From a virus, in the IMG/VR virus record IMGVR_UViG_3300047551_002099, positions 15,811 through 79,810 of that record: a stretch of DNA of 64,000 nt, one strand, 5' to 3'. Both the position numbers and the translations under genes were made by a program. A model generated the notes under the pieces. That model did not search any database and was not told the origin of the DNA. It saw only the letters and a program-made list of their open reading frames with translations. Every line of letters starts with the position of its first letter. Position 1 is the stretch's first letter. Shown here in pieces: positions 2,024-64,000 of the stretch.

Positions 2024-3793
2024 ATGGCGACCACCTTTAACTTTGAAGACCGCTTTTCCTACCCCCAACCCAACGGGATTAGCCCTGGTGTTGATGCTGA
2101 AACTGCCCAAACTTTGGCAGACGATGAAATCGAGCAGGAGTCCCCAGAGTTAAAGAGTATGGCAGCTATGGTTCGTCAATACTCGGTGCTACTAAAGCGA
2201 AAGCGCACCCTAGATATTTTTAATGTTATTACTCAGCAGACAGACCCACGCTGCGCGTTAATTCTTTCGGCAGCGCGCCGACGCAACACTAATCTTCCGC
2301 TTTTCAAAGGGATTAACGAAGTCCGGCAGGTCATGTTCAATGATGATGCTCGTAATCCTGACCCCAACCGTCCCTTAGACCAGACGTTGAACAACCGGTT
2401 GTTCAGTGACGGGGTTCGTAGGGCTAGTGCAGCGCTTGCAGCGTCTATTTTAATGGCAGAACTACCTGAAATTCAGCGGGAGTATGCTGCAAAAGTTGAA
2501 GAACAGGCAATTGCTGACTTAGACCGGATTATTGCTACATATGAAATTCAATCCCAGTTGCCCTCTACAGATAAAACATCTGAGCCGGCACCAATTGCTT
2601 TCTACTTTGAGCCGCTAGACTTTGAAATAGACCCGGCCTTGGAATTAGCCGTTGAGTGGTACTCCCCGTCTATTGTTAATAACTGGACAGCTGTACAGAC
2701 CTATACAGGTAAGACATCAACTTGGCATATTGTCAGCGACTTAGCTGACTCAATGAATATGTACACCAGCCAGGATGTCGATAAAGCATTGCTTGCTTCT
2801 GCTGACCTGTCTGGACCTTTACTAGGTTCTTCTTACTATCACACCTTATCTTTCTACCCCCGCAAGCCTATCAACGGGGTGCTGGGTTACTCTATTAACG
2901 TCAAGATTGAACTTCGACCGACTGGGTCCCCCCAAGAGCCCCCGATTGTGATGGGTGGGGCTACAGCTAACGAAGCAGAAGATATTTACGGGTTGTCCCC
3001 ATTTAAGTGGGGCCCTTACCCCAGTTCTATCGACACTTATCCTATCAACGGTAAGATTATCGTCCTGTACTTTGGTAAGTCGGCTGCCTTGACCCCACAG
3101 GAGCTAAACGATGCCTACATACCCACAGTACTTTACTTCCGTAATAAGATTCATTACACCGGGCAACCGACAGCTCTGCTTGACCCAGATGACCCGCTAA
3201 GCCCCCCAGACCCTGCTAGTATTATAGAACCGCTTCAGCAGGCAACTCTCCGTTTTCGAGTTCAGCCGTGGCATCCTAATATAGCCGCGATCGATAACCA
3301 ACCTGTTGAAGTCAGTGTTCCTTTTGAGCGGCTTTTAAGCGACGGCACAATAAGCCAAGTTGATCTAGATAACAGCCGGTATTCCCAAATCGCGGTTCAG
3401 CTACTATACGAAATGTCTTATATCGACTTGTCTACTAAAGCAACTGGGTGTATCGTTCGTAATGACCCTGTAGAGCAAGCACAGCCACTATCTGGACTAG
3501 AGTTAGTAGCGTGGGGGATTAGCAAGTCAGTATCTCACATTGTCTTGGACGTTTTAGAAATACCCCCGGATTTAGAAATGGCAACAGGTGATTTAACTGG
3601 CCCGAAAACCTCTTTTAGCTCCAATCCCCGCTCCCTGCGGGTGAAGGTTCAGAACGAGGCATTTGCAACAAACCCTCTTCTTGAAGCTGCCGCTACGCGG
3701 GAGCCTATTGGAGTTGTCCCCAAAGCAAATACCAAAGTATGGCGAGCCATCTTAGAGGAATCTAGCTCTGTAGAAGATTCCCGGTACTACTAA
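2024..3793 (+). CDS. putative head-tail connector/neck structural protein
   Basis: 589 aa, AAGGA RBS, lies between head genes and tail sheath. Function is inferred from position only. Confidence 0.4.
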   Translation: MATTFNFEDRFSYPQPNGISPGVDAETAQTLADDEIEQESPELKSMAAMVRQYSVLLKRKRTLDIFNVITQQTDPRCALILSAARRRNTNLPLFKGINEVRQVMFNDDARNPDPNRPLDQTLNNRLFSDGVRRASAALAASILMAELPEIQREYAAKVEEQAIADLDRIIATYEIQSQLPSTDKTSEPAPIAFYFEPLDFEIDPALELAVEWYSPSIVNNWTAVQTYTGKTSTWHIVSDLADSMNMYTSQDVDKALLASADLSGPLLGSSYYHTLSFYPRKPINGVLGYSINVKIELRPTGSPQEPPIVMGGATANEAEDIYGLSPFKWGPYPSSIDTYPINGKIIVLYFGKSAALTPQELNDAYIPTVLYFRNKIHYTGQPTALLDPDDPLSPPDPASIIEPLQQATLRFRVQPWHPNIAAIDNQPVEVSVPFERLLSDGTISQVDLDNSRYSQIAVQLLYEMSYIDLSTKATGCIVRNDPVEQAQPLSGLELVAWGISKSVSHIVLDVLEIPPDLEMATGDLTGPKTSFSSNPRSLRVKVQNEAFATNPLLEAAATREPIGVVPKANTKVWRAILEESSSVEDSRYY

Positions 3794-7700: not shown

Positions 7701-8358
7701 TGACCGGATTAACAGCGACAAGATTGTTCAAATTGCTGGTTCTATCCAAGGGGTTAACCTGAACGGTCAGATTTACCAAACTCAAGGCGCTACTGGCATC
7801 TACGTTGGTCTCCGCTGCGCCCGTCCGCCCCATATCTCTACCGCTTCTACCTACAGTGGTGGTTACGCCGAAAACGTAAGTTTCAGCAACATCAAATCTT
7901 CTCCTGATGTGTTAGACGCCTACACCCGCGGCGGTACGGAAGTGCTCTTCTACGATTCCGGTCTGAAGCTCTTTAAGTTCTTGAACGGGATTACCACCAG
8001 CCGCGACCCCAACAAGAAGTATGTATGTGTGCTTGAAGTTTGGGACCAAATGAAGCACGACCTTTACAACTACTTGCAGTACGTCCGGTCTGAGCCCAAC
8101 ACTCGCGACCTTCAAAAACGGGTTGCCTCTTCTGTAGATGCTTATCTACAACAGAAGTACCGCGACGACTGGTTCATGCGGATTGCTCCTACGATCTGTG
8201 GGCCTGCTAATAACACCGAAGCCGATATGATTCGTGGCAAGCTGTTTATCACGGTACGGGCTACGCCTACGTTCCCTGCTGACTTCATTGTCGTTAACGA
8301 CATTATGGATCTCAGCGAGACCTTCAGCTTTGAAACGCAGCCTATTAGTTCTTTCTAG
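4762..8358 (+). CDS. contractile tail sheath protein
   Basis: N-terminal AIIGEFDRGP, central ALNPGIYGNNIKVSI, TLSGG, and C-terminal ICGPANNTEADMIRGKLFITVRATPTFPADFI, all typical of sheath proteins. Confidence 0.92.
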   Translation: MVDYSFPNISFNSKVIGPAPVNPGWRDKYAIIGEFDRGPVVPVQSADRSVLASLYGEDTSSGSIALQQAMRQGATNAVVARVVPNSLPSQLYFEIAGDSLFVQPSTGYESAIANTNVLDTFNYTTGFKFTLDYIGEPNFVRTAYGDISSRNRPIDHPTFNGRAQMNYMVTRVQSADAAQRVVYEDSNEVLEVTLHNSSRDDYQLVTFEEGNNVYVEQYLKPGFTLRSSTSAQQEGLVIACEPYEYSEGVKAVLVKGHYSPANAYSGAVVTTSGLYNVTVTDFKKGSNVNSPTLSILAQSVALVGGSAYEVSAAVNNGGNIDVTLATNVTGSAKEDAPVSFVPKVTTVTYDSVDKVTDITLTGVLANTDIAVGSKLTFSAKDASYTVSAISTAWSSGTVTVEVEGDVRAGVKVKDYALVTTADSNEQLDTFKVHFPSVTQYILGYSLRSFDNSALQSRSTSRSYLTIGSSATKPVRYFDGFVNYAVDACLVFQEGDGGVYHKIPYLTGLKNLQEAQLLEREYFGLELYFGRPNDRKVYLAETTIFNIPLVKSEAVIGGESGSETAYPKGTLATTILRDLEYAIYGDPAMASMVKDIKVDITLLPFKFSGEASFVGVKSNRLRWNLERYVAGPKAVYSSKSGAVLTFDAVPDIILGKEDDYSVIIDGVAYPLTAASSTTVTVDVDDLSVLDILSTGDELEFRSQVQTKDILIRRQPEVDFDTLDYGLDKFYPFINGRDTASHAYADFYALNGKSLIRVVALNPGIYGNNIKVSIVPDEVTVNSAKFYLQVEDTNPGVILGGPKTELWYLDNREIDPETGAYLSVKQSNLVRAYFLPVIEPVNVSDLINTIDESLFQGLPLRIAPPLEVQDSAYASGITRVTSQGGSFIRNVTLSGGTEFVDPAPDAAIRARRDGYLAALRSLEKEDVAWIAIAGIYYGDNDYQEVFDELKAQCERATTLNGLRRGVVSLAPNVSPRQASVLRDRINSDKIVQIAGSIQGVNLNGQIYQTQGATGIYVGLRCARPPHISTASTYSGGYAENVSFSNIKSSPDVLDAYTRGGTEVLFYDSGLKLFKFLNGITTSRDPNKKYVCVLEVWDQMKHDLYNYLQYVRSEPNTRDLQKRVASSVDAYLQQKYRDDWFMRIAPTICGPANNTEADMIRGKLFITVRATPTFPADFIVVNDIMDLSETFSFETQPISSF

Positions 8359-14970: not shown

Positions 14971-16067
14971 TGGACTTCACAACAATCCAAGAGCGCCCGC
15001 TTTACAGCATGGCTGGATTACCAGTGTCTCCCTTCGCGCAGCGGGTAGGTTATCGTAATCAGACCCGTTACAAGACCGACCGGAACCGAGTCGTGGCTAT
15101 CACGTTAGGGCAGCTTGAATTAAGCCGGCTGCAAGACCAATACCAACAAGGTTATAACAACGGTTTTAATGCAACTGTCGGGCAGTACCGAGATTTGATG
15201 ATAGCCAAAGCAATTGAGGCGTCTTTAGTTAACGTTCAGTTTACTGATATAGACTCTAACAAGTTAACCACTCACGCAGATAAGGTTTGGGGTTACTACA
15301 CTTATGACGAAATCTGGGACTATATCCAACCCGGAGAAGACATAGATTACCCTGCGCTGTGGGCTAGTCTAGGAACCCCTGCTTATTACTTTTACTATGC
15401 AAAGCCTGACCTGGCTGACGGTATTCTTAGCTGCTACGAGCGGTTAATCACTTTCTTCTGGGCTACGTTGGGTATGAGTGCCAAGCGAACACCCAAAGAC
15501 CGGCTCAACCGGCTTATCAATGCAACGGGGCTTAATGACGTCTTTCTAGAACGGCTGTCCTTACTCAACAAGAAAATTGATAAGATAAGCTTCCTGCGCC
15601 GTAATAACATCAGCAAATCAACAGGTCTTAAGGAAGACTTACTGCTCGGGCACTACAGTTCTGATTACTTTGCCGCTTTGCTAGAAGACGCCGACCCCGA
15701 TCTTAAAGACGAGTTTAGTTCTATAACCAAGGCTATTTACTCTATTGCTAAACCTTGTGGTCTTTACTACGTCGCTCAGTTCTTTACTGTAGAAGCCTAC
15801 ATTAGAATTGCCCGTCTACTGGAGTTGGATTCTTATACTGCCCAACTACCACTAAGCCAGTTTGTAGCGTCGCAAGAGTATAGTGCCAAGTCAATCCGGC
15901 TATCTATTGCGGATTGGTTGAGCACTGCTAACGACGCGCATCTAATACTTAATTGGTATACTAATAATGAAGATAAGTTCTTACGCTCTAACCTAATCTT
16001 TTGGCTGGCAGCGCTAGAAGATCAAAAGTTGTCTTACGCTTCAGAGTACCGGTTGACTGATTTTTAG
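14970..16067 (+). CDS. hypothetical protein (baseplate module)
   Basis: 365-aa ORF, TAATG coupling. Confidence 0.6.
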   Translation: MDFTTIQERPLYSMAGLPVSPFAQRVGYRNQTRYKTDRNRVVAITLGQLELSRLQDQYQQGYNNGFNATVGQYRDLMIAKAIEASLVNVQFTDIDSNKLTTHADKVWGYYTYDEIWDYIQPGEDIDYPALWASLGTPAYYFYYAKPDLADGILSCYERLITFFWATLGMSAKRTPKDRLNRLINATGLNDVFLERLSLLNKKIDKISFLRRNNISKSTGLKEDLLLGHYSSDYFAALLEDADPDLKDEFSSITKAIYSIAKPCGLYYVAQFFTVEAYIRIARLLELDSYTAQLPLSQFVASQEYSAKSIRLSIADWLSTANDAHLILNWYTNNEDKFLRSNLIFWLAALEDQKLSYASEYRLTDF

Positions 16068-56408: not shown

Positions 56409-57116
56409 CTACAGAAACCGACCTTCAGTCGCCAAGGTTAATTGGGCGCCGCTATAGTTGAGCCTAAATGGCAACGGCTTGTTTTCTAGTAGCGCGTAGA
56501 CAACTTCATTAGTCATCAATGCACTGGCGAAGTTGGCGTTGATTAATTGAGGGCTGGACACGGCTTCGTAGCCACAACTACCACGGGGCTGGTCGCTAGG
56601 ACGTTCGTAGTTAGTAGCTACGTCGAAGGGGTGAACCGGACGTAGTTTACCTTCCACGCGGGAGTACCAGAGGCAGGTAGCAGTATGGAAGTCGTTACCT
56701 GGTAGGACGCAGGCGAAGTCCAACATTGGGTCGAGGTCGTCTAGGTCTTTGATAACTTCGTTGCGGGCGGACTCAGAGTCAACGGCTAATACTACCAGCG
56801 CCGCGCCGGGTTCGTCACAGTGAGTAATATATTCCTCCAGCTGGGTACGAAACTTGTACCGCCGCACGAAGTCTGGTACCGCACTGATATTACAGACAGA
56901 CTCTAACCGCTTAGCAGCGGCGGCAGCTTTGTTCATACCTACGAAGGCAGGGTCGAATAATTGCCTTACGCTATTAGACGATTCATACTCATCGCCGTCG
57001 TACACACAGACGTTCTTGGTGCCTTCCTTGTGATAAGCTAACAGCCGGACTAAAGGCTCTAATAGAATCGAACCGGTTCCACCGGCGCCAATGACGTGGG
57101 CACTAGAAAATTTCAT
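56409..57116 (-). CDS. E1-like ThiF-family adenylating enzyme
   Basis: VIGAGGTGS nucleotide-binding loop, DGDEYESSNSVRQ, GMNKA, AVDSESAR, candidate catalytic Cys in RGSCG, then QLINAN. Confidence 0.9.
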   Translation of the reverse strand: MKFSSAHVIGAGGTGSILLEPLVRLLAYHKEGTKNVCVYDGDEYESSNSVRQLFDPAFVGMNKAAAAAKRLESVCNISAVPDFVRRYKFRTQLEEYITHCDEPGAALVVLAVDSESARNEVIKDLDDLDPMLDFACVLPGNDFHTATCLWYSRVEGKLRPVHPFDVATNYERPSDQPRGSCGYEAVSSPQLINANFASALMTNEVVYALLENKPLPFRLNYSGAQLTLATEGRFL

Positions 57117-58047
57117 TCTTGGCTCCTAAGATTTCAAATTTGGATTTAGTGGATAAGGTTTTTGAGTAAAGCACCAAGTCGCGGCAGGTCGTTAAGTACC
57201 CACTGGGAGTTTTCTTTACCCAGCCAACCACGTAGGTTTTATCGTGTTTAGGCCGGTAGTGGTGGCTTAAAGGGACTGTCTCGAACAGCTTCCCGCGGTC
57301 GGTAATTACCATTGCTTGAGGTCTTTTGGTAGCGACTTTCAAGGCTAAATCAGAAGACCGAAAGGAAGTAGCTTCTTCTAGACTAAGGTGCGGCGGGGTG
57401 GGACTGGTTCGCTGGGCATACTCTTCATGGTCGTAGCTACTAAGTAGAAGTTCCGTGCTGCGGTCGTTTGTCCCCTGGGCCAGGTCTTGGTTAAAGTTGC
57501 TGGTGAAGAACGTATTGAACGCTTCCAGATGGTCGCGCGGCTGTTCTGCTCTACCCCAACAAATCTCACCGTTATGGTAAACGTTAGCTAACCGGTAGGG
57601 CACGTAGGTGCCGTCTTTGGTAACCGCAAATAGTTTCCAGCTCCCATGGTATATAGATATCAAAGACTTCGGAACGTGGATAGTCTTTGTGCCGTATAAG
57701 TGCTCTTCAACTGTGCATCCCAACCTGCATTTGTTGTCAAATACGCGGAGTGTGCCACCATCGCAAAGCTCGCACTCATCCATGAAGGCTCTCCTATATG
57801 TCTGCAGTTCGAAGAATTTGTAATCGGCCCGCTCGAAGGCAGTTGTCTTGATAAACAACTTAGTAATGTCATCTATAGGTTTGTAATAGAAACAACCTTT
57901 GCAGGTCTCTTCAAACGAGTCTTGGCGGTTATAGCGGATGTCAATGCTGAAGGGGTCAAACAAGCAGGAGATTTTTATCCTGTTGCTTTTGTTGATACTA
58001 AAAATGGCCCCCGCCGCGATGGACGGGAACCGAAGCACTTTGAACAT
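57103..58047 (-). CDS. prokaryotic E2-like protein (Prok-E2 family D/PRTRC protein B type), paralogue 2
   Basis: PYRLANVYHNGEICWG...FNTFFTSNFNQDL. Cys-rich N-terminus (CKGC, CELC, CRLGC). Confidence 0.75.
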   Translation of the reverse strand: MFKVLRFPSIAAGAIFSINKSNRIKISCLFDPFSIDIRYNRQDSFEETCKGCFYYKPIDDITKLFIKTTAFERADYKFFELQTYRRAFMDECELCDGGTLRVFDNKCRLGCTVEEHLYGTKTIHVPKSLISIYHGSWKLFAVTKDGTYVPYRLANVYHNGEICWGRAEQPRDHLEAFNTFFTSNFNQDLAQGTNDRSTELLLSSYDHEEYAQRTSPTPPHLSLEEATSFRSSDLALKVATKRPQAMVITDRGKLFETVPLSHHYRPKHDKTYVVGWVKKTPSGYLTTCRDLVLYSKTLSTKSKFEILGAKNEIF

Positions 58048-62295: not shown

Positions 62296-62345
62296 AGTTT
62301 AAACAGCTAAGTGCGTCACCTTAGTACTATGGCACATTTCTTAAG

Positions 62346-62378
62346 AAAAAGTGAAGGGGGTGCATAGTATGCGCCCCC
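62346..62378 (-). terminator. terminator of the tmRNA/tRNA transcript
   Basis: Minus strand GGGGGCGCATA-C-TATGCACCCCC followed by TTCACTTTTT. Confidence 0.65.
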
Positions 62379-62537
62379 GGTGACCTAGTTGGGTAACAAG
62401 GTTAGGTCAGACCCCGTCATTCATACCGCAACAGCGGTACGTTTGAAAGCAACCACTTGGTTGGCATTTGTTGTTTGCTCATCCGAGCAGGCTTCATCGT
62501 AGTGCCATCCTTTACCAATCGAAACCGTTGCATCCCC
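62379..62537 (-). ncRNA. ssrA: tmRNA coding piece (permuted, two-piece type); tag ANQVVAFKRTAVAV*
   Basis: Starts GGGGATGCAACGGTTTCGA, has GAAGCCTGCTCGGATGAGC, and AAACAACAAAT precedes the GCC resume codon. Tag ORF 62465-62421 resembles cyanobacterial ANNIVxFxRxAxAA tags. Downstream pseudoknot TGACCTA/TAGGTCA with GGGT/ACCC. Confidence 0.92.
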
Positions 62538-62538
62538 G

Positions 62539-62573
62539 TGGTACAAGGTACAGGAGTCGAACCTGTCTAAGCG
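62539..62573 (-). pseudogene. 3' half of split tRNA-Ile2(CAU)
   Basis: CGC-TTAG-ACAGG-TTCGACT-CCTGT-ACCTTGT-ACCA. ACCTTGT pairs with the GCAGGGT start at 63304. Confidence 0.8.
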
Positions 62574-62577
62574 GGCG

Positions 62578-62665
62578 TGGGCAAAGCGGGAATCGAACCC
62601 GCGACCTCTGTTAGAGGCTGCCGGCTTATGAGGCCGGTCCTAGAAACCAACGCTAGTCTTTGCCC
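62578..62665 (-). tRNA. atypical tRNA with CAU anticodon and long variable arm
   Basis: GGGCAAA/TTTGCCC-A acceptor, CTAG/CTAG D-stem, CCGGC-CTCATAA-GCCGG anticodon arm, GCCTCT-AAC-AGAGGT variable arm, GCGGG-TTCGATT-CCCGC T-arm. No encoded CCA. Confidence 0.85.
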
Positions 62666-62717
62666 TGGAGACCCGAACCTAGATGTATAATAGAAGTATT
62701 TTAGCTTACTATTTATC

Positions 62718-63272
62718 ATGCAAGAACGAGAAAGGTATTTGAACGGCTATAAACTGGTGCATGCTCCTGACAATTTTTCTATTATGGATAGTGAAAATTG
62801 GTCGGGATGGGTGTATGAGCATAGATACGTAATGGAGCAACATTTAGGTAGAGCTCTGACCTCAGAAGAGGTTGTGCACCACTTGGACGGTAATAAGGAT
62901 AATAACCATATCACTAACTTGATAGTGCTCTCTAAGATAGACCACGGTAAGTTACATCGTTGGATGGATAGTAAGATAATCGTGGATAAACCAGAAACTC
63001 AACCTATTATCGTTGAGTGTGCCCACTGCAAAGCTAAATTTAAAAGACTTAATAAAGACTCTAAATATTGCTCTAATGAGTGTGCTCATTATGCCTCAAG
63101 GAAAGTCGTTAGACCTACTGCGGAGCAGTTAGCCAAATTAATCTGGCAATATCCTATGACTCAGCTTGGAGCTATGCACGGTGTTAGTGATAAGGCTGTT
63201 AAAAAGTGGTGTAAAGCCTACGGTATAACCGAGTTTCCTCCTAAAGGTTACTTTTTACGAAAGCTTGCATGA
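62718..63272 (+). CDS. HNH homing endonuclease (inserted antisense in tRNA-Ile2)
   Basis: VYEHRYVMEQHLGR...VVHHLDGNKDNNHITNL, followed by CxxC...CxxxC and an HTH-like tail. TATAAT at 62686. Stop codon lies on the tRNA anticodon loop. Confidence 0.92.
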   Translation: MQERERYLNGYKLVHAPDNFSIMDSENWSGWVYEHRYVMEQHLGRALTSEEVVHHLDGNKDNNHITNLIVLSKIDHGKLHRWMDSKIIVDKPETQPIIVECAHCKAKFKRLNKDSKYCSNECAHYASRKVVRPTAEQLAKLIWQYPMTQLGAMHGVSDKAVKKWCKAYGITEFPPKGYFLRKLA

Positions 63273-63304
63273 GTTCGCTGCCTTAACCGCTCGGCCAACC
63301 CTGC
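63269..63304 (-). pseudogene. 5' half of split tRNA-Ile2(CAU)
   Basis: GCAGGGTTGGCCGAGCGGTTAAGGCAGCGAACTCAT ends exactly at the CAT anticodon and closely resembles the cyanobacterial tRNA-Ile(CAU) 5' half. Confidence 0.85.
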
Positions 63305-63308
63305 AAGG

Positions 63309-63379
63309 CACCTCCTGAAGGAATCGAACCCTCGTATTCGGTTTTGGAGACCGACGTTCTGCCACTGAACTAAGGAGAT
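63309..63379 (-). tRNA. trnW: tRNA-Trp(CCA)
   Basis: ATCTCCT/AGGAGGT-G acceptor, GTTC/GAAC D-stem, TCGGT-CTCCAAA-ACCGA, GAGGG-TTCGATT-CCTTC. Confidence 0.95.
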
Positions 63380-63380
63380 T

Positions 63381-63410
63381 TGGTGGAGATGGGGAGAGTC
63401 GAACACTCCA
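63381..63410 (-). ncRNA. ssrA: tmRNA acceptor piece, 3' segment (T-loop, acceptor 3' strand, CCA)
   Basis: GTTCGACT-CTCCC-CATCTCC-ACCA. CATCTCC pairs with GGGGATG at 62537-62531, giving the AlaRS G3:U70 pair and A73. Confidence 0.88.
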
Positions 63411-63416
63411 TAGAGT

Positions 63417-63445
63417 TTGACTCTTATACAAGTATAAGCTATCAT
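63417..63445 (+). promoter_or_regulatory. sigma70-type promoter for the second HNH gene
   Basis: TTGACT-N17-TATCAT, 6 nt upstream of ATG 63452 (near-leaderless mRNA). Confidence 0.65.
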
Positions 63446-63451
63446 ATACTT

Positions 63452-63934
63452 ATGAAAAAAGCAAAAGCTGACAAAACCCCAAGAACTTGCTTCACCTGTA
63501 AAGCTGATTTTGTCCCTTCTAGCAACCACAAAAATTGTCCTGTATGCCGTTCTTTAGCAAGAAAGCATTTTTGTGACTGCGGCAAGGAGATATGGGAAAA
63601 GTCTACTAGGTGTTTACGATGCCATAATCTCAATAAAACAGGTAAGTCATTGGGTGTTACTTACCACAAGAGAGGTTATGTCATGCGGAGGGTTCATAAG
63701 GAATATGTTTTTGAACATATTCTTGTTATGGAGCGCCATCTCGGTCGTAAGCTACTAGAAGGTGAAAATGTGCACCACATTAATGGTGTTAAAGACGACA
63801 ACCGTATCGAGAATCTTGAGCTGTGGACTCGACCCCAACCGGCTGGAGTTCGCGCCAAAGATATTCTTAAATGGGCTAGACAAGTTATTGAAACCTATGA
63901 GCCTATAGAACATCTGCTTTCAAGTTCTGAGTAG
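63452..63934 (+). CDS. HNH homing endonuclease with Zn-finger N-terminus (inserted antisense in tmRNA)
   Basis: CxxC repeats, then YVFEHILVMERHLGR...NVHHINGVKDDNRIENL. ATG at 63452 is preferred over the ORF-track start. Confidence 0.92.
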   Translation: MKKAKADKTPRTCFTCKADFVPSSNHKNCPVCRSLARKHFCDCGKEIWEKSTRCLRCHNLNKTGKSLGVTYHKRGYVMRRVHKEYVFEHILVMERHLGRKLLEGENVHHINGVKDDNRIENLELWTRPQPAGVRAKDILKWARQVIETYEPIEHLLSSSE

Positions 63935-63939
63935 CGTTG

Positions 63940-63971
63940 CCGTCTTGGCAACCAGCCGCTACGACTATCCC
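63940..63971 (-). ncRNA. ssrA: tmRNA acceptor piece, 5' segment (helix-2 3' strand plus GAC); true 5' end uncertain
   Basis: TCGTAG pairs with CTACGA and TTGCCAA pairs with TTGGTAA of the coding piece, followed by the conserved GAC and the first GG of the T-stem. Confidence 0.75.
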
Positions 63972-64000
63972 AGTTTAAAGACGTATGGAAGGTCTATTGT

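Follow-up and report, generated by a model that had tools for sequence, protein, structure and literature searches.

How could a homing-endonuclease gene come to lie inside a tRNA gene when no intron surrounds it? The question is raised by a locus in a metagenome-assembled viral contig (IMG/VR record IMGVR_UViG_3300047551_002099, positions 15,811 to 79,810), of which the 64,000 nucleotides analysed are referred to as the window. Homing endonucleases are thought to persist in useful genes only if an intron or intein splices out, and otherwise between genes. The preliminary description of the locus had proposed a selfish HNH cassette that split a tRNA-Ile2(CAU) gene at the anticodon and brought in a replacement tRNA with the same anticodon.

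Interruption of the resident tRNA(CAU) gene

The features of the locus are listed in Table 1. On the minus strand the 5' half of the resident gene stops right after CAT, as had been described, and this left junction was backed by contigs from another study (runs X4 and X7). The 3' half was described correctly as missing exactly AATT, but its start was off by one base: comparison with L002, a related 216-kb phage, showed that homology to the intact gene restarts at 62574 and not at 62573, which sets the limits of the insert at 62575-63268. The insertion point lies between U36 and A37, within the anticodon loop.

Table 1. Coordinates of the RNA genes, HNH genes and inserts at the locus, in positions of the window.
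Feature	Position	Strand	Details
tmRNA coding piece	62343..62537	-	Tag ANQVVAFKRTAVAV, then stop; terminator-like hairpin at end
3' half, resident tRNA(CAU)	62539..62574	-	CCG of anticodon stem, CTTAG, T arm, acceptor strand, ACCA
Inserted cassette 1	62575..63268		694 bp; takes the place of AATT of anticodon loop and stem
Nested tRNA(CAU)	62577..62665	-	89 nt, 5-bp variable-arm stem, stems fully paired, A73, no encoded CCA (ARAGORN)
Spacer between divergent HNH1 start and nested tRNA 5' end	62666..62717		52 bp; promoters presumed
HNH1 homing-endonuclease gene	62718..63272	+	Intact, 184 aa, antisense to RNA genes
5' half, resident tRNA(CAU)	63269..63304	-	Acceptor strand, D arm, 5' anticodon stem, CTCAT
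tRNA-Trp(CCA)	63307..63379	-	Intact upstream neighbour, same RNA operon; ARAGORN; Rfam 63.3 bits
tmRNA acceptor piece, 3' part	63381..63404	-	T loop, 3' T stem, CATCTCC, ACCA; identical to L002
Inserted cassette 2	63405..63939		535 bp; splits T stem of tmRNA acceptor piece
HNH2 ORF in cassette 2	63452-63934	antisense	Pfam HNH_3, E 4.7e-12
tmRNA acceptor piece, 5' part	63940..63973	-	CTGGGATAGTCGTAGCGGCTGGTTGCCAAGACGG; from L002 comparison

In L002 the gene is uninterrupted. It was called by ARAGORN as a 76-nt tRNA-Met(cat) at 8180-8255 (54.4 bits with the Rfam tRNA model), and it lies between tRNA-Trp and the tmRNA coding piece. The 5' half in the window matches 33 of 36 bases of L002 8180-8215, and the 3' half matches 34 of 36 bases of 8220-8255. 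In the X4 and X7 contigs, 62574 is joined straight to 63269 with AATT between them and the 694 nucleotides skipped; an unbroken gene with AATT at the break site was present in L002 and in contigs from two unrelated metagenomes. Because L002 and X4/X7 carry the same gene without interruption, the halves are true tRNA remains and not a chance match. The related phage with an intact gene that had been proposed as a check therefore exists, and together with X4/X7 it maps the borders to a precise empty site, so that insertion into a formerly intact tRNA(CAU) gene is well supported. Presence/absence polymorphism of this kind among close relatives is a mark of a free-standing homing endonuclease. Megablast of the region against GenBank phages returned no match, and neither did a search of viral contigs for the exact pattern of the 5' half.

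The CAU anticodon of the proposed tRNA-Ile2 is present, but the Ile2 identity was not established. AUA makes up 13.6% of the isoleucine codons, a figure that does not discriminate between Met and Ile2 identity, and the gene is called tRNA(CAU) here. In the anticodon stem of the halves, the 5' strand GCGAA has no match to the remaining CCG, and ARAGORN did not call an outer tRNA from the halves with introns allowed. A tRNA(CAU) allele with the GCGAA stem occurs in runs X1 and X3. With AATT missing and the stem strands non-complementary, a whole tRNA cannot be made from the joined halves. Compared with L002, 5 of 72 bases are different in the halves, 1 of 73 in tRNA-Trp (72 bases identical) and 0 of 83 in the parts of the tmRNA acceptor piece, a pattern that may reflect relaxed constraint on the halves.

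A two-piece (permuted) tmRNA gene surrounds the locus, which falls within its intervening segment, and the ancestral arrangement was a compact RNA operon of tmRNA acceptor piece, tRNA-Trp, tRNA(CAU) and tmRNA coding piece. The coding piece, which starts 2 nt after the ACCA of the broken tRNA, was recognised by matches to the Rfam cyano_tmRNA and tmRNA_permuted models and by ARAGORN at a lowered threshold, and it differs from that of L002 in the terminator hairpin only. ARAGORN reported a permuted tmRNA with the same tag in L002 (tmRNA_permuted 86.8 bits, cut-off 47). The acceptor piece of the window lies upstream of the coding piece with its tag reading frame, CATCTCC pairs with GGGGATG to give G3:U70, and the 5' part is identical to L002 at 59 of 59 bases. 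This acceptor piece is itself split by a second cassette, for which X4 and X7 again give the empty site: 63404 is joined to 63940 with TC between and 535 nucleotides skipped. A promoter scan of cassette 2 found a promoter-like TTGACT-17-TATCAT, and the closest relatives of HNH2 lie directly 3' of phage tmRNA genes.

Contents and lineage of the cassette

Cassette 1 contains an intact antisense HNH gene and a long-arm tRNA(CAU), the tRNA gene lying just upstream of the HNH1 start codon. The overlap that had been noted between the HNH stop codon and the anticodon loop is real, the TGA at 63270-63272 being the complement of TCA in the CTCAT of the tRNA. No strong sigma-70 site was found by consensus scan in the spacer between the two genes. 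An 11-mer in this spacer, AAGCTAAAATA, is shared with the region upstream of the L002 tmRNA gene; its reading as a repeated phage promoter gained no support, the window having a single exact copy.

No ribozyme was found in the window by Rfam searches of both strands, whether 4 kb were searched at E ≤ 1 or 761 nt at E ≤ 10, and neither strand gave a match to the group I catalytic core (RF00028) or to group II. Since the exons also lack four nucleotides, the invasion appears to have been intron-free, as had been suggested. Neither terminal repeats nor a target-site duplication were found at cassette 1, and no helix closes its ends (duplex energy -10.6 compared with a shuffle mean of -11.0). The scans returned no second copy of the cassette or of the nested tRNA, so that mobility as a unit is conjectural.

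HNH1 matched Pfam HNH_3 (E 9.6e-11). Its motifs are kept in 12 homologues and comprise HH...N...N...H, a CxxC...CSxxC zinc ribbon and a C-terminal GVSDKAVKKWCKAYGI; the catalytic His and Asn and the zinc-ribbon Cys residues are invariant in the alignment. HNH1 is therefore an intact, recognised homing-endonuclease ORF, and it lies outside any self-splicing intron or intein. Its closest relatives (37-43% identity) are inside group I introns that split tRNA(CAU) at the same site, between CAT and AA. Six of these (L142, L145, L148, L149, L150 and L151) have the homologous ORF within a tRNA that breaks off after CTCAT and resumes with AA; five gave Rfam group I matches of 55.9-81.8 bits, and L151 is placed by its ARAGORN exon context only, with no Rfam group I match. 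A truncated seventh intron case, L144, gave a group I match of 74.3 bits. Scores with RF00028 were about 55-82 bits in L059, L142-L145 and L148-L150, compared with no match in the window. Other arrangements occur as well: the HNH gene lies 26-50 nt downstream of an intact tRNA(CAU) in L143 and L003, and in L059, of the same HNH clade, it adjoins a tRNA(CAU) carrying an ORF-less intron. The selfish-element reading gains from these relatives, which place HNH1 in a lineage of homing endonucleases associated with the anticodon loop of tRNA(CAU), and this lineage link is well supported.

In nearly all of the 98 relatives' loci the HNH gene is co-oriented with the RNA genes, whereas in the window it is antisense, which points to a single illegitimate event. 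L141, which ranked first in the metagenome scan (41% identity, lowest E-value), is a ribozyme-less unit of tRNA-Thr and HNH gene within another tRNA. Across the family, some tRNA lies at most 300 nt away in about 50 of 97 loci. Same-anticodon tRNAs flank the family genes in 2 of 17 cases, compared with 15 of 177 for neighbouring tRNAs generally, and same-anticodon flanking as a general rule is unsupported. The closest database homologues of HNH1 are P0002 and P0003, and a viral scan with P0002 returned distant relatives only. HNH1 is also encoded on a 92-kb contig.

The complete tRNA with a CAU anticodon that had been reported between the halves was recovered by ARAGORN and by the Rfam tRNA model (39.5 bits, cut-off 29); the tRNA-Sec model gave 41.4 bits, under its cut-off of 47. 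The nested tRNA has U33, a purine at 37 (A37) and the T loop TTCGATT, as expected of a cloverleaf. Its core is not canonical, with G8 in place of U8, C at the first D-loop position where A14 is expected, and two bases (GA) instead of a single nucleotide 26 between the D and anticodon stems. The C at the closing pair of the T stem may pair with G8 instead, so that the 7/5 and 8/4 folds contain the same number of pairs. The nested and resident tRNAs share A73 and CAU and differ in their acceptor stems. Their anticodon loops, CTCATAA, are identical, so that cleavage resistance of the nested tRNA is not readable from its sequence; for the idea that it had been swapped in as a tRNA resistant to host anticodon nucleases, there was no evidence at all.

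The relative with the unbroken gene (G001, 96% complete) encodes three tRNAs, namely Trp, CAU and Ala, and no homologue of the nested tRNA was found in it. The pattern is one of replacement, in which the window phage has the nested tRNA and a broken gene, and the relative has the intact gene and no nested tRNA. The anticodon arm of the nested tRNA gave at least 118 viral matches, many of them tRNA(CAU) genes; only six of these matches are long-arm, and none is homologous beyond that arm. Among 185,579 cellular genomes there were only two long-gap matches to the nested tRNA, neither related. In L049, L041, L079 and L136, long-arm tRNA(CAU) genes belonging to other sequence families are present with no HNH gene. 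In L059 and L136 a long-arm tRNA(CAU) is found alongside an ordinary one, and the long-arm form may therefore be of the other isotype (Met versus Ile2), which weakens a like-for-like reading. We give about even odds that the nested tRNA compensates for the broken gene.

Proposed break and replacement, and the alternatives

With no ribozyme found on either strand and halves that cannot be joined into a tRNA, the locus is best explained as a break-and-replace cassette, free of a ribozyme, at a site of classical intron homing. We put the probability at roughly 0.6 that a homing-endonuclease cassette without a ribozyme occupies the homing site of its own lineage here. The 694-bp unit entered tRNA(CAU) between U36 and A37 with removal of AATT. 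HNH1 would cut the DNA of the intact tRNA(CAU) gene in or near the anticodon-loop region, and the cassette would be copied or captured into that break. The resident gene would now be a dead pair of halves, and its loss would also leave the genome that encodes the enzyme without a target. The nested long-arm tRNA(CAU) may supply the lost decoding function, in which case the invasion would cost the phage little and the replacement gene would do what self-splicing does in the intron-borne relatives. The selfish-element interpretation in the preliminary description is supported in part, by the once-intact target, the HNH lineage, the intron-free invasion and the absence of the nested tRNA from the relative; the anticodon-nuclease idea gained no support. 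A tentative proposal, to which we give somewhat less than an even chance, is that 'break and replace' is a general and so far undescribed homing-endonuclease strategy: the nuclease gene would carry along a diverged version of its own target tRNA that resists the nuclease, and every round of homing would destroy the resident tRNA gene and put the carried one in its place.

A real if on balance unlikely possibility is that the locus is a neutral wreck: the HNH element would have hit a dispensable tRNA, and the nested tRNA would be a piece of the donor cluster, of another isotype or inactive, that compensates for nothing. A passenger tRNA is expected of an HNH family that lives in tRNA clusters, with a tRNA within 300 nt in about half of its loci, and CAU is common among phage anticodons. 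The lack of enrichment for same-anticodon flanks, the coexistence of long-arm and ordinary tRNA(CAU) in two loci and the non-canonical core of the nested tRNA point the same way, as does the second HNH cassette, which splits the tmRNA acceptor piece and brings no replacement. Yet the nested tRNA is fully paired and above the Rfam cut-off, the pairing of a split tRNA with a nested one recurs in L141, and the relative, with only three tRNAs, has CAU among them, so that keeping a CAU tRNA looks selected.

That the insert is a true intron, the 694 nucleotides being removed from the RNA, or that the halves assemble in trans as a functional split tRNA, is very improbable. The site between U36 and A37 is that of the relatives' group I introns, and the halves are still well conserved (67 of 72 bases compared with L002). 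Against this stand the lack of a group I or other ribozyme match on either strand, the antisense ORF, the absent AATT with unpaired stem strands, and insert ends that no helix closes; bacteria are also not known to have protein-based tRNA splicing. No spliced joint was seen in the RNA-library contigs, but rare forms are lost in contigs and this evidence is weak. Contigs of the metatranscriptome (X3) span the nested-tRNA junction and, at similar low depth, both HNH genes, so that DNA carry-over is possible and they are evidence of neither expression nor processing. It is highly improbable that the nested RNA, instead of decoding as a tRNA, replaces the broken acceptor piece of the two-piece tmRNA. 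The Rfam cyano_tmRNA and permuted models do align its T arm with the coding piece (42.7 and 41.4 bits), and ARAGORN at a lowered threshold gives the same alignment, but both scores are under the family cut-offs of 70 and 47. The nested RNA has its own perfect 7-bp acceptor stem, and its 3' strand TTTGCCC pairs poorly with GGGGATG, giving G3-C70 in place of the G3:U70 needed for alanine charging. This candidate was rejected because the real acceptor piece, identical to L002 and with G3:U70, was found upstream. An assembly chimera, in which the assembler joined the cassette to the tRNA halves, might be suspected in a metagenome-assembled contig with the locus within 1.5 kb of its end. It is scarcely credible here, since an independent 1558-nt Logan contig from the freshwater source sample spans both cassettes (62443-64000) with no differences, and two junctions are crossed by RNA-library contigs of another study: the right junction of cassette 1, between nested tRNA and 3' half (62443-62652, metatranscriptome), and the 63940 junction of cassette 2 (63706-63983).

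Relation to known systems and significance

Phage T4 SegB cuts inside a tRNA gene of a nuclease-less phage, and its homing brings neighbouring tRNA genes in with removal of the recipient's markers (PMC2330249; review PMC3984707). The ribozyme-less cassette resembles this intronless homing in that a nuclease gene in a phage tRNA region is absent from close relatives. It differs in that SegB is a GIY-YIG enzyme encoded between intact tRNA genes, whereas the HNH gene of the window interrupts a tRNA gene, whose two halves are kept as a scar, and is accompanied by a nested same-anticodon tRNA. Mobile group I introns occur in bacterial tRNA anticodon loops, as in Azoarcus pre-tRNA-Ile (PMC13168695), and an endonuclease of the cyanobacterial tRNA-fMet intron targets the tRNA-fMet anticodon region (Bonocora & Shub 2001, as cited in PMC3984707). 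The window shares with such introns a tRNA(CAU) target, an anticodon-loop insertion after U36 and an enzyme homologous to those in introns of this kind at CAT/AA on phage-like contigs. The cyanobacterial tRNA-fMet intron enzyme belongs to a different nuclease family from HNH1. Unlike these introns, the window has no ribozyme, its ORF is antisense, four exon nucleotides are lost, and a nested tRNA takes the place of splicing.

Collaborative (trans) homing relies on a free-standing endonuclease directed at the site where an intron inserts, as in cyanophage psbA and T3/T7-like phages (PMC3984707). L059, with its ORF-less tRNA(CAU) intron and adjoining HNH gene, has exactly that layout; in the window, too, an interrupted target would protect the carrier genome, but the interruption is a nuclease gene and a tRNA and not a self-splicing intron. 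In 'fractured genes', homing-endonuclease genes split protein genes whose halves are rejoined by split inteins (PMC2677866). There as here, the two parts of a useful gene are separated by a homing-endonuclease gene, and function is, or here may be, restored by a second means; in place of protein trans-splicing, the halves in the window are seemingly abandoned and a separate whole gene is supplied. The nested tRNA also recalls the allo-tRNAs, which in the available text of Mukai et al. (PMC5389517) have a 12-bp acceptor/T branch split 8/4 or 9/3 and a long variable arm, and are found, with other long-arm tRNAs, in phages and next to mobile elements. As in those tRNAs, a long variable arm is combined with an anticodon that does not usually go with such an arm. 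A drawing with acceptor and T stems of 8 and 4 bp is possible, and the 7/5 fold is equally so; the discriminator is A73. The same portion of PMC5389517 does not discuss a CAU anticodon for allo-tRNAs.

No published description of a tRNA-carrying HNH cassette splitting a tRNA was found in the literature. What appears to be new is a ribozyme-less HNH cassette at a classical intron homing site, with a same-anticodon spare tRNA that may stand in for the broken one. In addition, tRNA genes on viral and probably viral contigs were found here to harbour group I introns with nuclease genes, of which a 2014 review knew none in phages (PMC3984707). One HNH clade is seen in three states at the tRNA(CAU) anticodon loop: within group I introns, beside an ORF-less intron, and within the gene with a spare tRNA in place of a splicing element. 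The order of steps in the formation and decay of mobile introns, and whether a replacement gene can substitute for splicing, become directly testable. For annotation this means that a half tRNA gene in a phage genome can be the scar of an insertion, and that the functional copy may be the odd 'extra' tRNA beside a nuclease gene. If 'break and replace' is true, HNH clades would switch between intron-borne, free-standing and tRNA-carrying forms at one site, and this would drive the rapid turnover and odd shapes of phage tRNAs, the long-arm tRNA(CAU) included.

The split tRNA(CAU) gene and its empty site

A tRNA(CAU) gene in the window is split by a 694-bp insert, cassette 1, which holds an HNH nuclease gene (HNH1) and a complete nested tRNA of the same anticodon. 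The comparison locus L002, on a contig from a 216.5-kb phage record rated 96% complete, adjoins a gene for a 520-aa protein with 85% identity to its window counterpart. In L002 the locus is unbroken, tRNA-Trp being followed by a 76-nt tRNA(CAT) which the window halves match at 33/36 and 34/36 bases, and AATT occupies the place of the window's 694 nt. In X4 and X7, metagenomes from another study, contigs run from 62574 through AATT, and nothing else, into 63269. An independent assembly of the source sample covered the whole region with zero differences, and metatranscriptome contigs from a third study span the junction of the nested tRNA and the 3' half. From the intact L002 locus, the X4/X7 joints and the independent contigs, it follows that the layout is real and that the empty site can be placed with single-base precision. 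Insertion of cassette 1 into a once-real tRNA(CAU) gene is well supported.

The preliminary description had asked for a related phage with the intact gene and for mapped cassette borders, which L002 and X4/X7 now supply. It had correctly placed the end of the 5' half exactly after CAT, the antisense HNH gene with its TGA over the anticodon loop, and the complete CAU tRNA between the halves. The lack of AATT in the 3' half was borne out, and its start was moved from 62573 to 62574.

Positions of features in the window and in comparison loci
Feature	Position	Strand	Remarks
tRNA-Trp(CCA)	63379-63307	minus	
5' half of resident tRNA(CAU), first 36 nt	63304-63269	minus	acceptor strand, D arm, 5' anticodon stem, terminal CTCAT; begins three bases past tRNA-Trp
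Cassette 1, foreign DNA, 694 nt	63268-62575		
HNH1 ORF, 184 codons	62718-63272	plus	opposite to RNA genes; TGA stop is complement of TCA within CTCAT
Spacer, 52 bp			between HNH1 ORF and nested tRNA
Nested tRNA(CAT), complete, 89 nt	62665-62577	minus	RNA-gene strand; 3' end 3 nt ahead of resident 3' half
3' half of resident tRNA(CAU), final 36 nt	62574-62539	minus	CCG, CTTAG, T arm, acceptor strand, ACCA
Cassette 2, 535 bp, antisense HNH2	63405-63939		splits T stem of tmRNA acceptor piece
tRNA(CAU) interrupted between CAT and AA	L142 2865-3722		
same	L145 2884-3731		
same	L148 787-1628		
same	L149 2883-3725		
same	L150 2940-3709		
same	L151 1647-2449		no Rfam group I match
same	L059 2522-2832		
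Long-arm tRNA	L161 2885-2972		
same	L199 5692-5784		
same	L201 3408-3501		
same	L155 595-675		
Further long-arm tRNA contigs	L036, L041, L049, L059, L079, L136		

The proposal that the gene had been invaded without an intron was upheld. The Rfam group I model, which does detect introns in relatives' tRNA(CAU) genes, gave no match here on either strand, whether over 4 kb at E<=1 or, at E<=10, over just the 761 nt of the split locus. The HNH1 ORF is antisense to the split gene, four exon nucleotides are lost, the 5' stem strand GCGAA is mismatched to the remaining 3' strand CCG, no helix closing the insert ends was found in cassette 1, and ARAGORN with introns allowed did not find the outer tRNA. 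Compared with L002, the halves have changed at 5/72 nt, tRNA-Trp at 1/73, the tmRNA acceptor-piece parts at 0/83 and the tmRNA coding piece nowhere outside its terminator hairpin, while the neighbouring protein-coding DNA is only 62-74% identical. The halves thus evolve faster than the adjoining RNA genes, and are read as a probable recent scar under relaxed constraint.

Contigs of the source sample (X1) and the metatranscriptome (X3), with loose ends at 63269-63303, carry other intact tRNA(CAU) genes. Their 5' halves are almost the same as the window's, GCGAA stem allele included, and continue as AATTCGC... with a different T arm; they may come from the host or from other phages, or may have donated a co-conversion tract.

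The surrounding tmRNA gene and cassette 2

A two-piece (permuted) tmRNA gene (window 62343-63973, minus; L002 8011-8464) encloses the whole locus in its intervening segment, and this segment consists of the Trp and CAU tRNA genes. In L002 the ACCA of the acceptor piece ends 1 nt ahead of tRNA-Trp; the coding piece, with tag ANQVVAFKRTAVAV, begins 2 nt past the tRNA(CAU) ACCA. Cassette 2 has its own TTGACT-17-TATCAT site and brought no replacement piece along; its empty site is present in X4/X7, and the acceptor-piece parts flanking it are 100% identical to L002. The split tmRNA, if it still works, may do so as a three-piece form. The closest relatives of HNH2, the cassette 2 nuclease (46-52% identity; L225, L226, L230), are directly 3' of one-piece phage tmRNA genes.

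In a sub-threshold Rfam cyano_tmRNA alignment the nested tRNA contributes its T arm and the tmRNA gene its coding piece, but the nested tRNA was rejected as a tmRNA acceptor piece because of its G3-C70 pair and its own acceptor stem. X4 and X7 contigs also join the coding piece (62496) to the 5' part of the acceptor piece (63965), skipping 1468 nt, which could mean that a relative has its genes arranged differently, or that the assembler made the join. Elsewhere in the window, adjacent genes at 56409-58047 (minus) match the Pfam families ThiF (E1-like) and Prok-E2_D, which suggests that the phage has a ubiquitin-like conjugation module some 1.2 kb away from the tmRNA gene, and a single ORF of 7866 codons spans 30158-53758 (plus).

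The nested tRNA as a possible replacement

All stems of the nested tRNA are fully paired (7, 4, 5, 5 in the variable arm, and 5 bp). U33 and A37 are present, the D loop contains GG, the T loop reads TTCGATT, and the Rfam tRNA model gives a score of 39.5 bits (cut-off 29). The tRNA is unusual in combining a CAU anticodon with a long variable arm, in having G8 and two bases separating the D and anticodon stems, and in lacking an encoded CCA. It can also be drawn with 8 bp in the acceptor stem and 4 bp in the T stem, a fold that recalls the allo-tRNAs as outlined in PMC5389517.

The L002 phage has three tRNAs only (Trp, CAU, Ala), with no homologue of the nested tRNA in its 96%-complete record. 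The pattern across the two genomes is therefore one-for-one replacement. No other copy of the nested tRNA was found among viral contigs or 185,579 cellular genomes. Six other viral contigs contain long-arm tRNA(CAU) genes that share the anticodon arm but are otherwise unrelated in sequence; such tRNAs are almost absent among the cellular genomes. In one of the six, L059, the long-arm gene adjoins an HNH1-clade gene and an interrupted tRNA(CAU). The other five have no HNH gene near, and two coexist with an ordinary tRNA(CAU), so these long-arm tRNAs may be a distinct isotype. Phage tRNA clusters repeatedly contain long-arm tRNAs (81-94 nt; anticodon UAU or CAU), several with an 8-bp acceptor stem as drawn by ARAGORN.

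The HNH1 lineage and intron-bearing tRNA genes

The HNH1 protein is intact, belongs to the HNH_3 family and carries a zinc ribbon together with a C-terminal motif conserved among homologues. We collected 98 loci with relatives, the closest at 37-43% identity; tRNA genes lie within 3 kb in 62 of them, and in about 50 a tRNA lies no more than 300 nt from the ORF and nearly always shares its strand. The ORF is inside a tRNA gene with exons ending CTCAT and resuming AA in L142, L145, L148, L149, L150 and L151, and L144 is a further, truncated case. Rfam group I matches were obtained in all of these but L151 (55.9-81.8 bits, cut-off 50). An intact tRNA(CAT) precedes the HNH gene by 26-50 nt in L143 and L003, and in L059, where the intron itself has no ORF, the gene is 3' of the interrupted tRNA(CAU). 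The intron-borne and tRNA(CAT)-adjoining relatives thus tie the HNH1 clade to the tRNA(CAU) anticodon loop. Given their lineage associations, both HNH1 and HNH2 occupy the kind of RNA gene typical of their own lineage. The site of the HNH1 clade is the position of the group I introns in these tRNA(CAU) genes; the exact site of the Azoarcus tRNA-Ile intron is likewise after CAU. PMC13168695 places that intron, too, in the anticodon loop.

The data establish that cassette 1 was inserted, to which lineage and site its enzyme belongs, that a ribozyme is lacking, that the halves have decayed and that the two genomes show a replacement pattern. To this a conditional course of events may be added. 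HNH1 would cut intact tRNA(CAU) DNA near the anticodon loop, and a unit of the enzyme gene and the tRNA gene directly upstream would be captured into the break. Splitting the gene would take the enzyme's target out of the carrier genome, and the nested tRNA would make up for the loss. The interpretation in the preliminary description is partly supported: its selfish-element reading is well supported, as are insertion and the intron-free state, and compensation by the nested tRNA is plausible. No flanking homology or repeats were found at the cassette 1 ends, which, with the opposite orientation of HNH1, suggests that the unit was captured illegitimately and did not arrive by routine homing.

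The nested layout is not unique. In L141 (2820-3571), which ranked first in the metagenome scan (41% identity) and is also ribozyme-less, a complete tRNA-Thr(UGU) (2880-2954) lies together with an HNH gene (about 2969-3540) between the 5' and 3' parts of another tRNA, all co-oriented. The 3' part of that outer tRNA presumably resembles tRNA-Thr, set against the E. coli sequence. Among described systems T4 SegB comes closest: this free-standing nuclease, encoded within a phage tRNA cluster, cleaves a tRNA gene of nuclease-less relatives, and its homing carries its neighbouring tRNA genes along (PMC2330249). 'Fractured genes' (PMC2677866) are a protein-level analogue of the split locus. Our search, which did not span all journals, found no paper on a nuclease gene and a same-anticodon tRNA nested in a tRNA gene.

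Most introns between CAT and AA encode an HNH enzyme, and their contigs also bear tRNA arrays; L059 is from the IMG/VR viral collection and the other intron-bearing loci are metagenome contigs. With L059 included, group I scores are about 55-82 bits at all of these loci but L151. In L143 a group I intron of 749 nt also interrupts a tRNA-Leu(UAA). A further metagenome contig with tRNAs and an HNH1-family gene, L154, has a twister-sister ribozyme match at 1798-1878 (39.8 bits, cut-off 34). According to a 2014 review, every phage intron then known was in a protein-coding gene (PMC3984707), and the intron-bearing tRNA(CAU) genes in L059 and the metagenome contigs may therefore deserve reporting in their own right.
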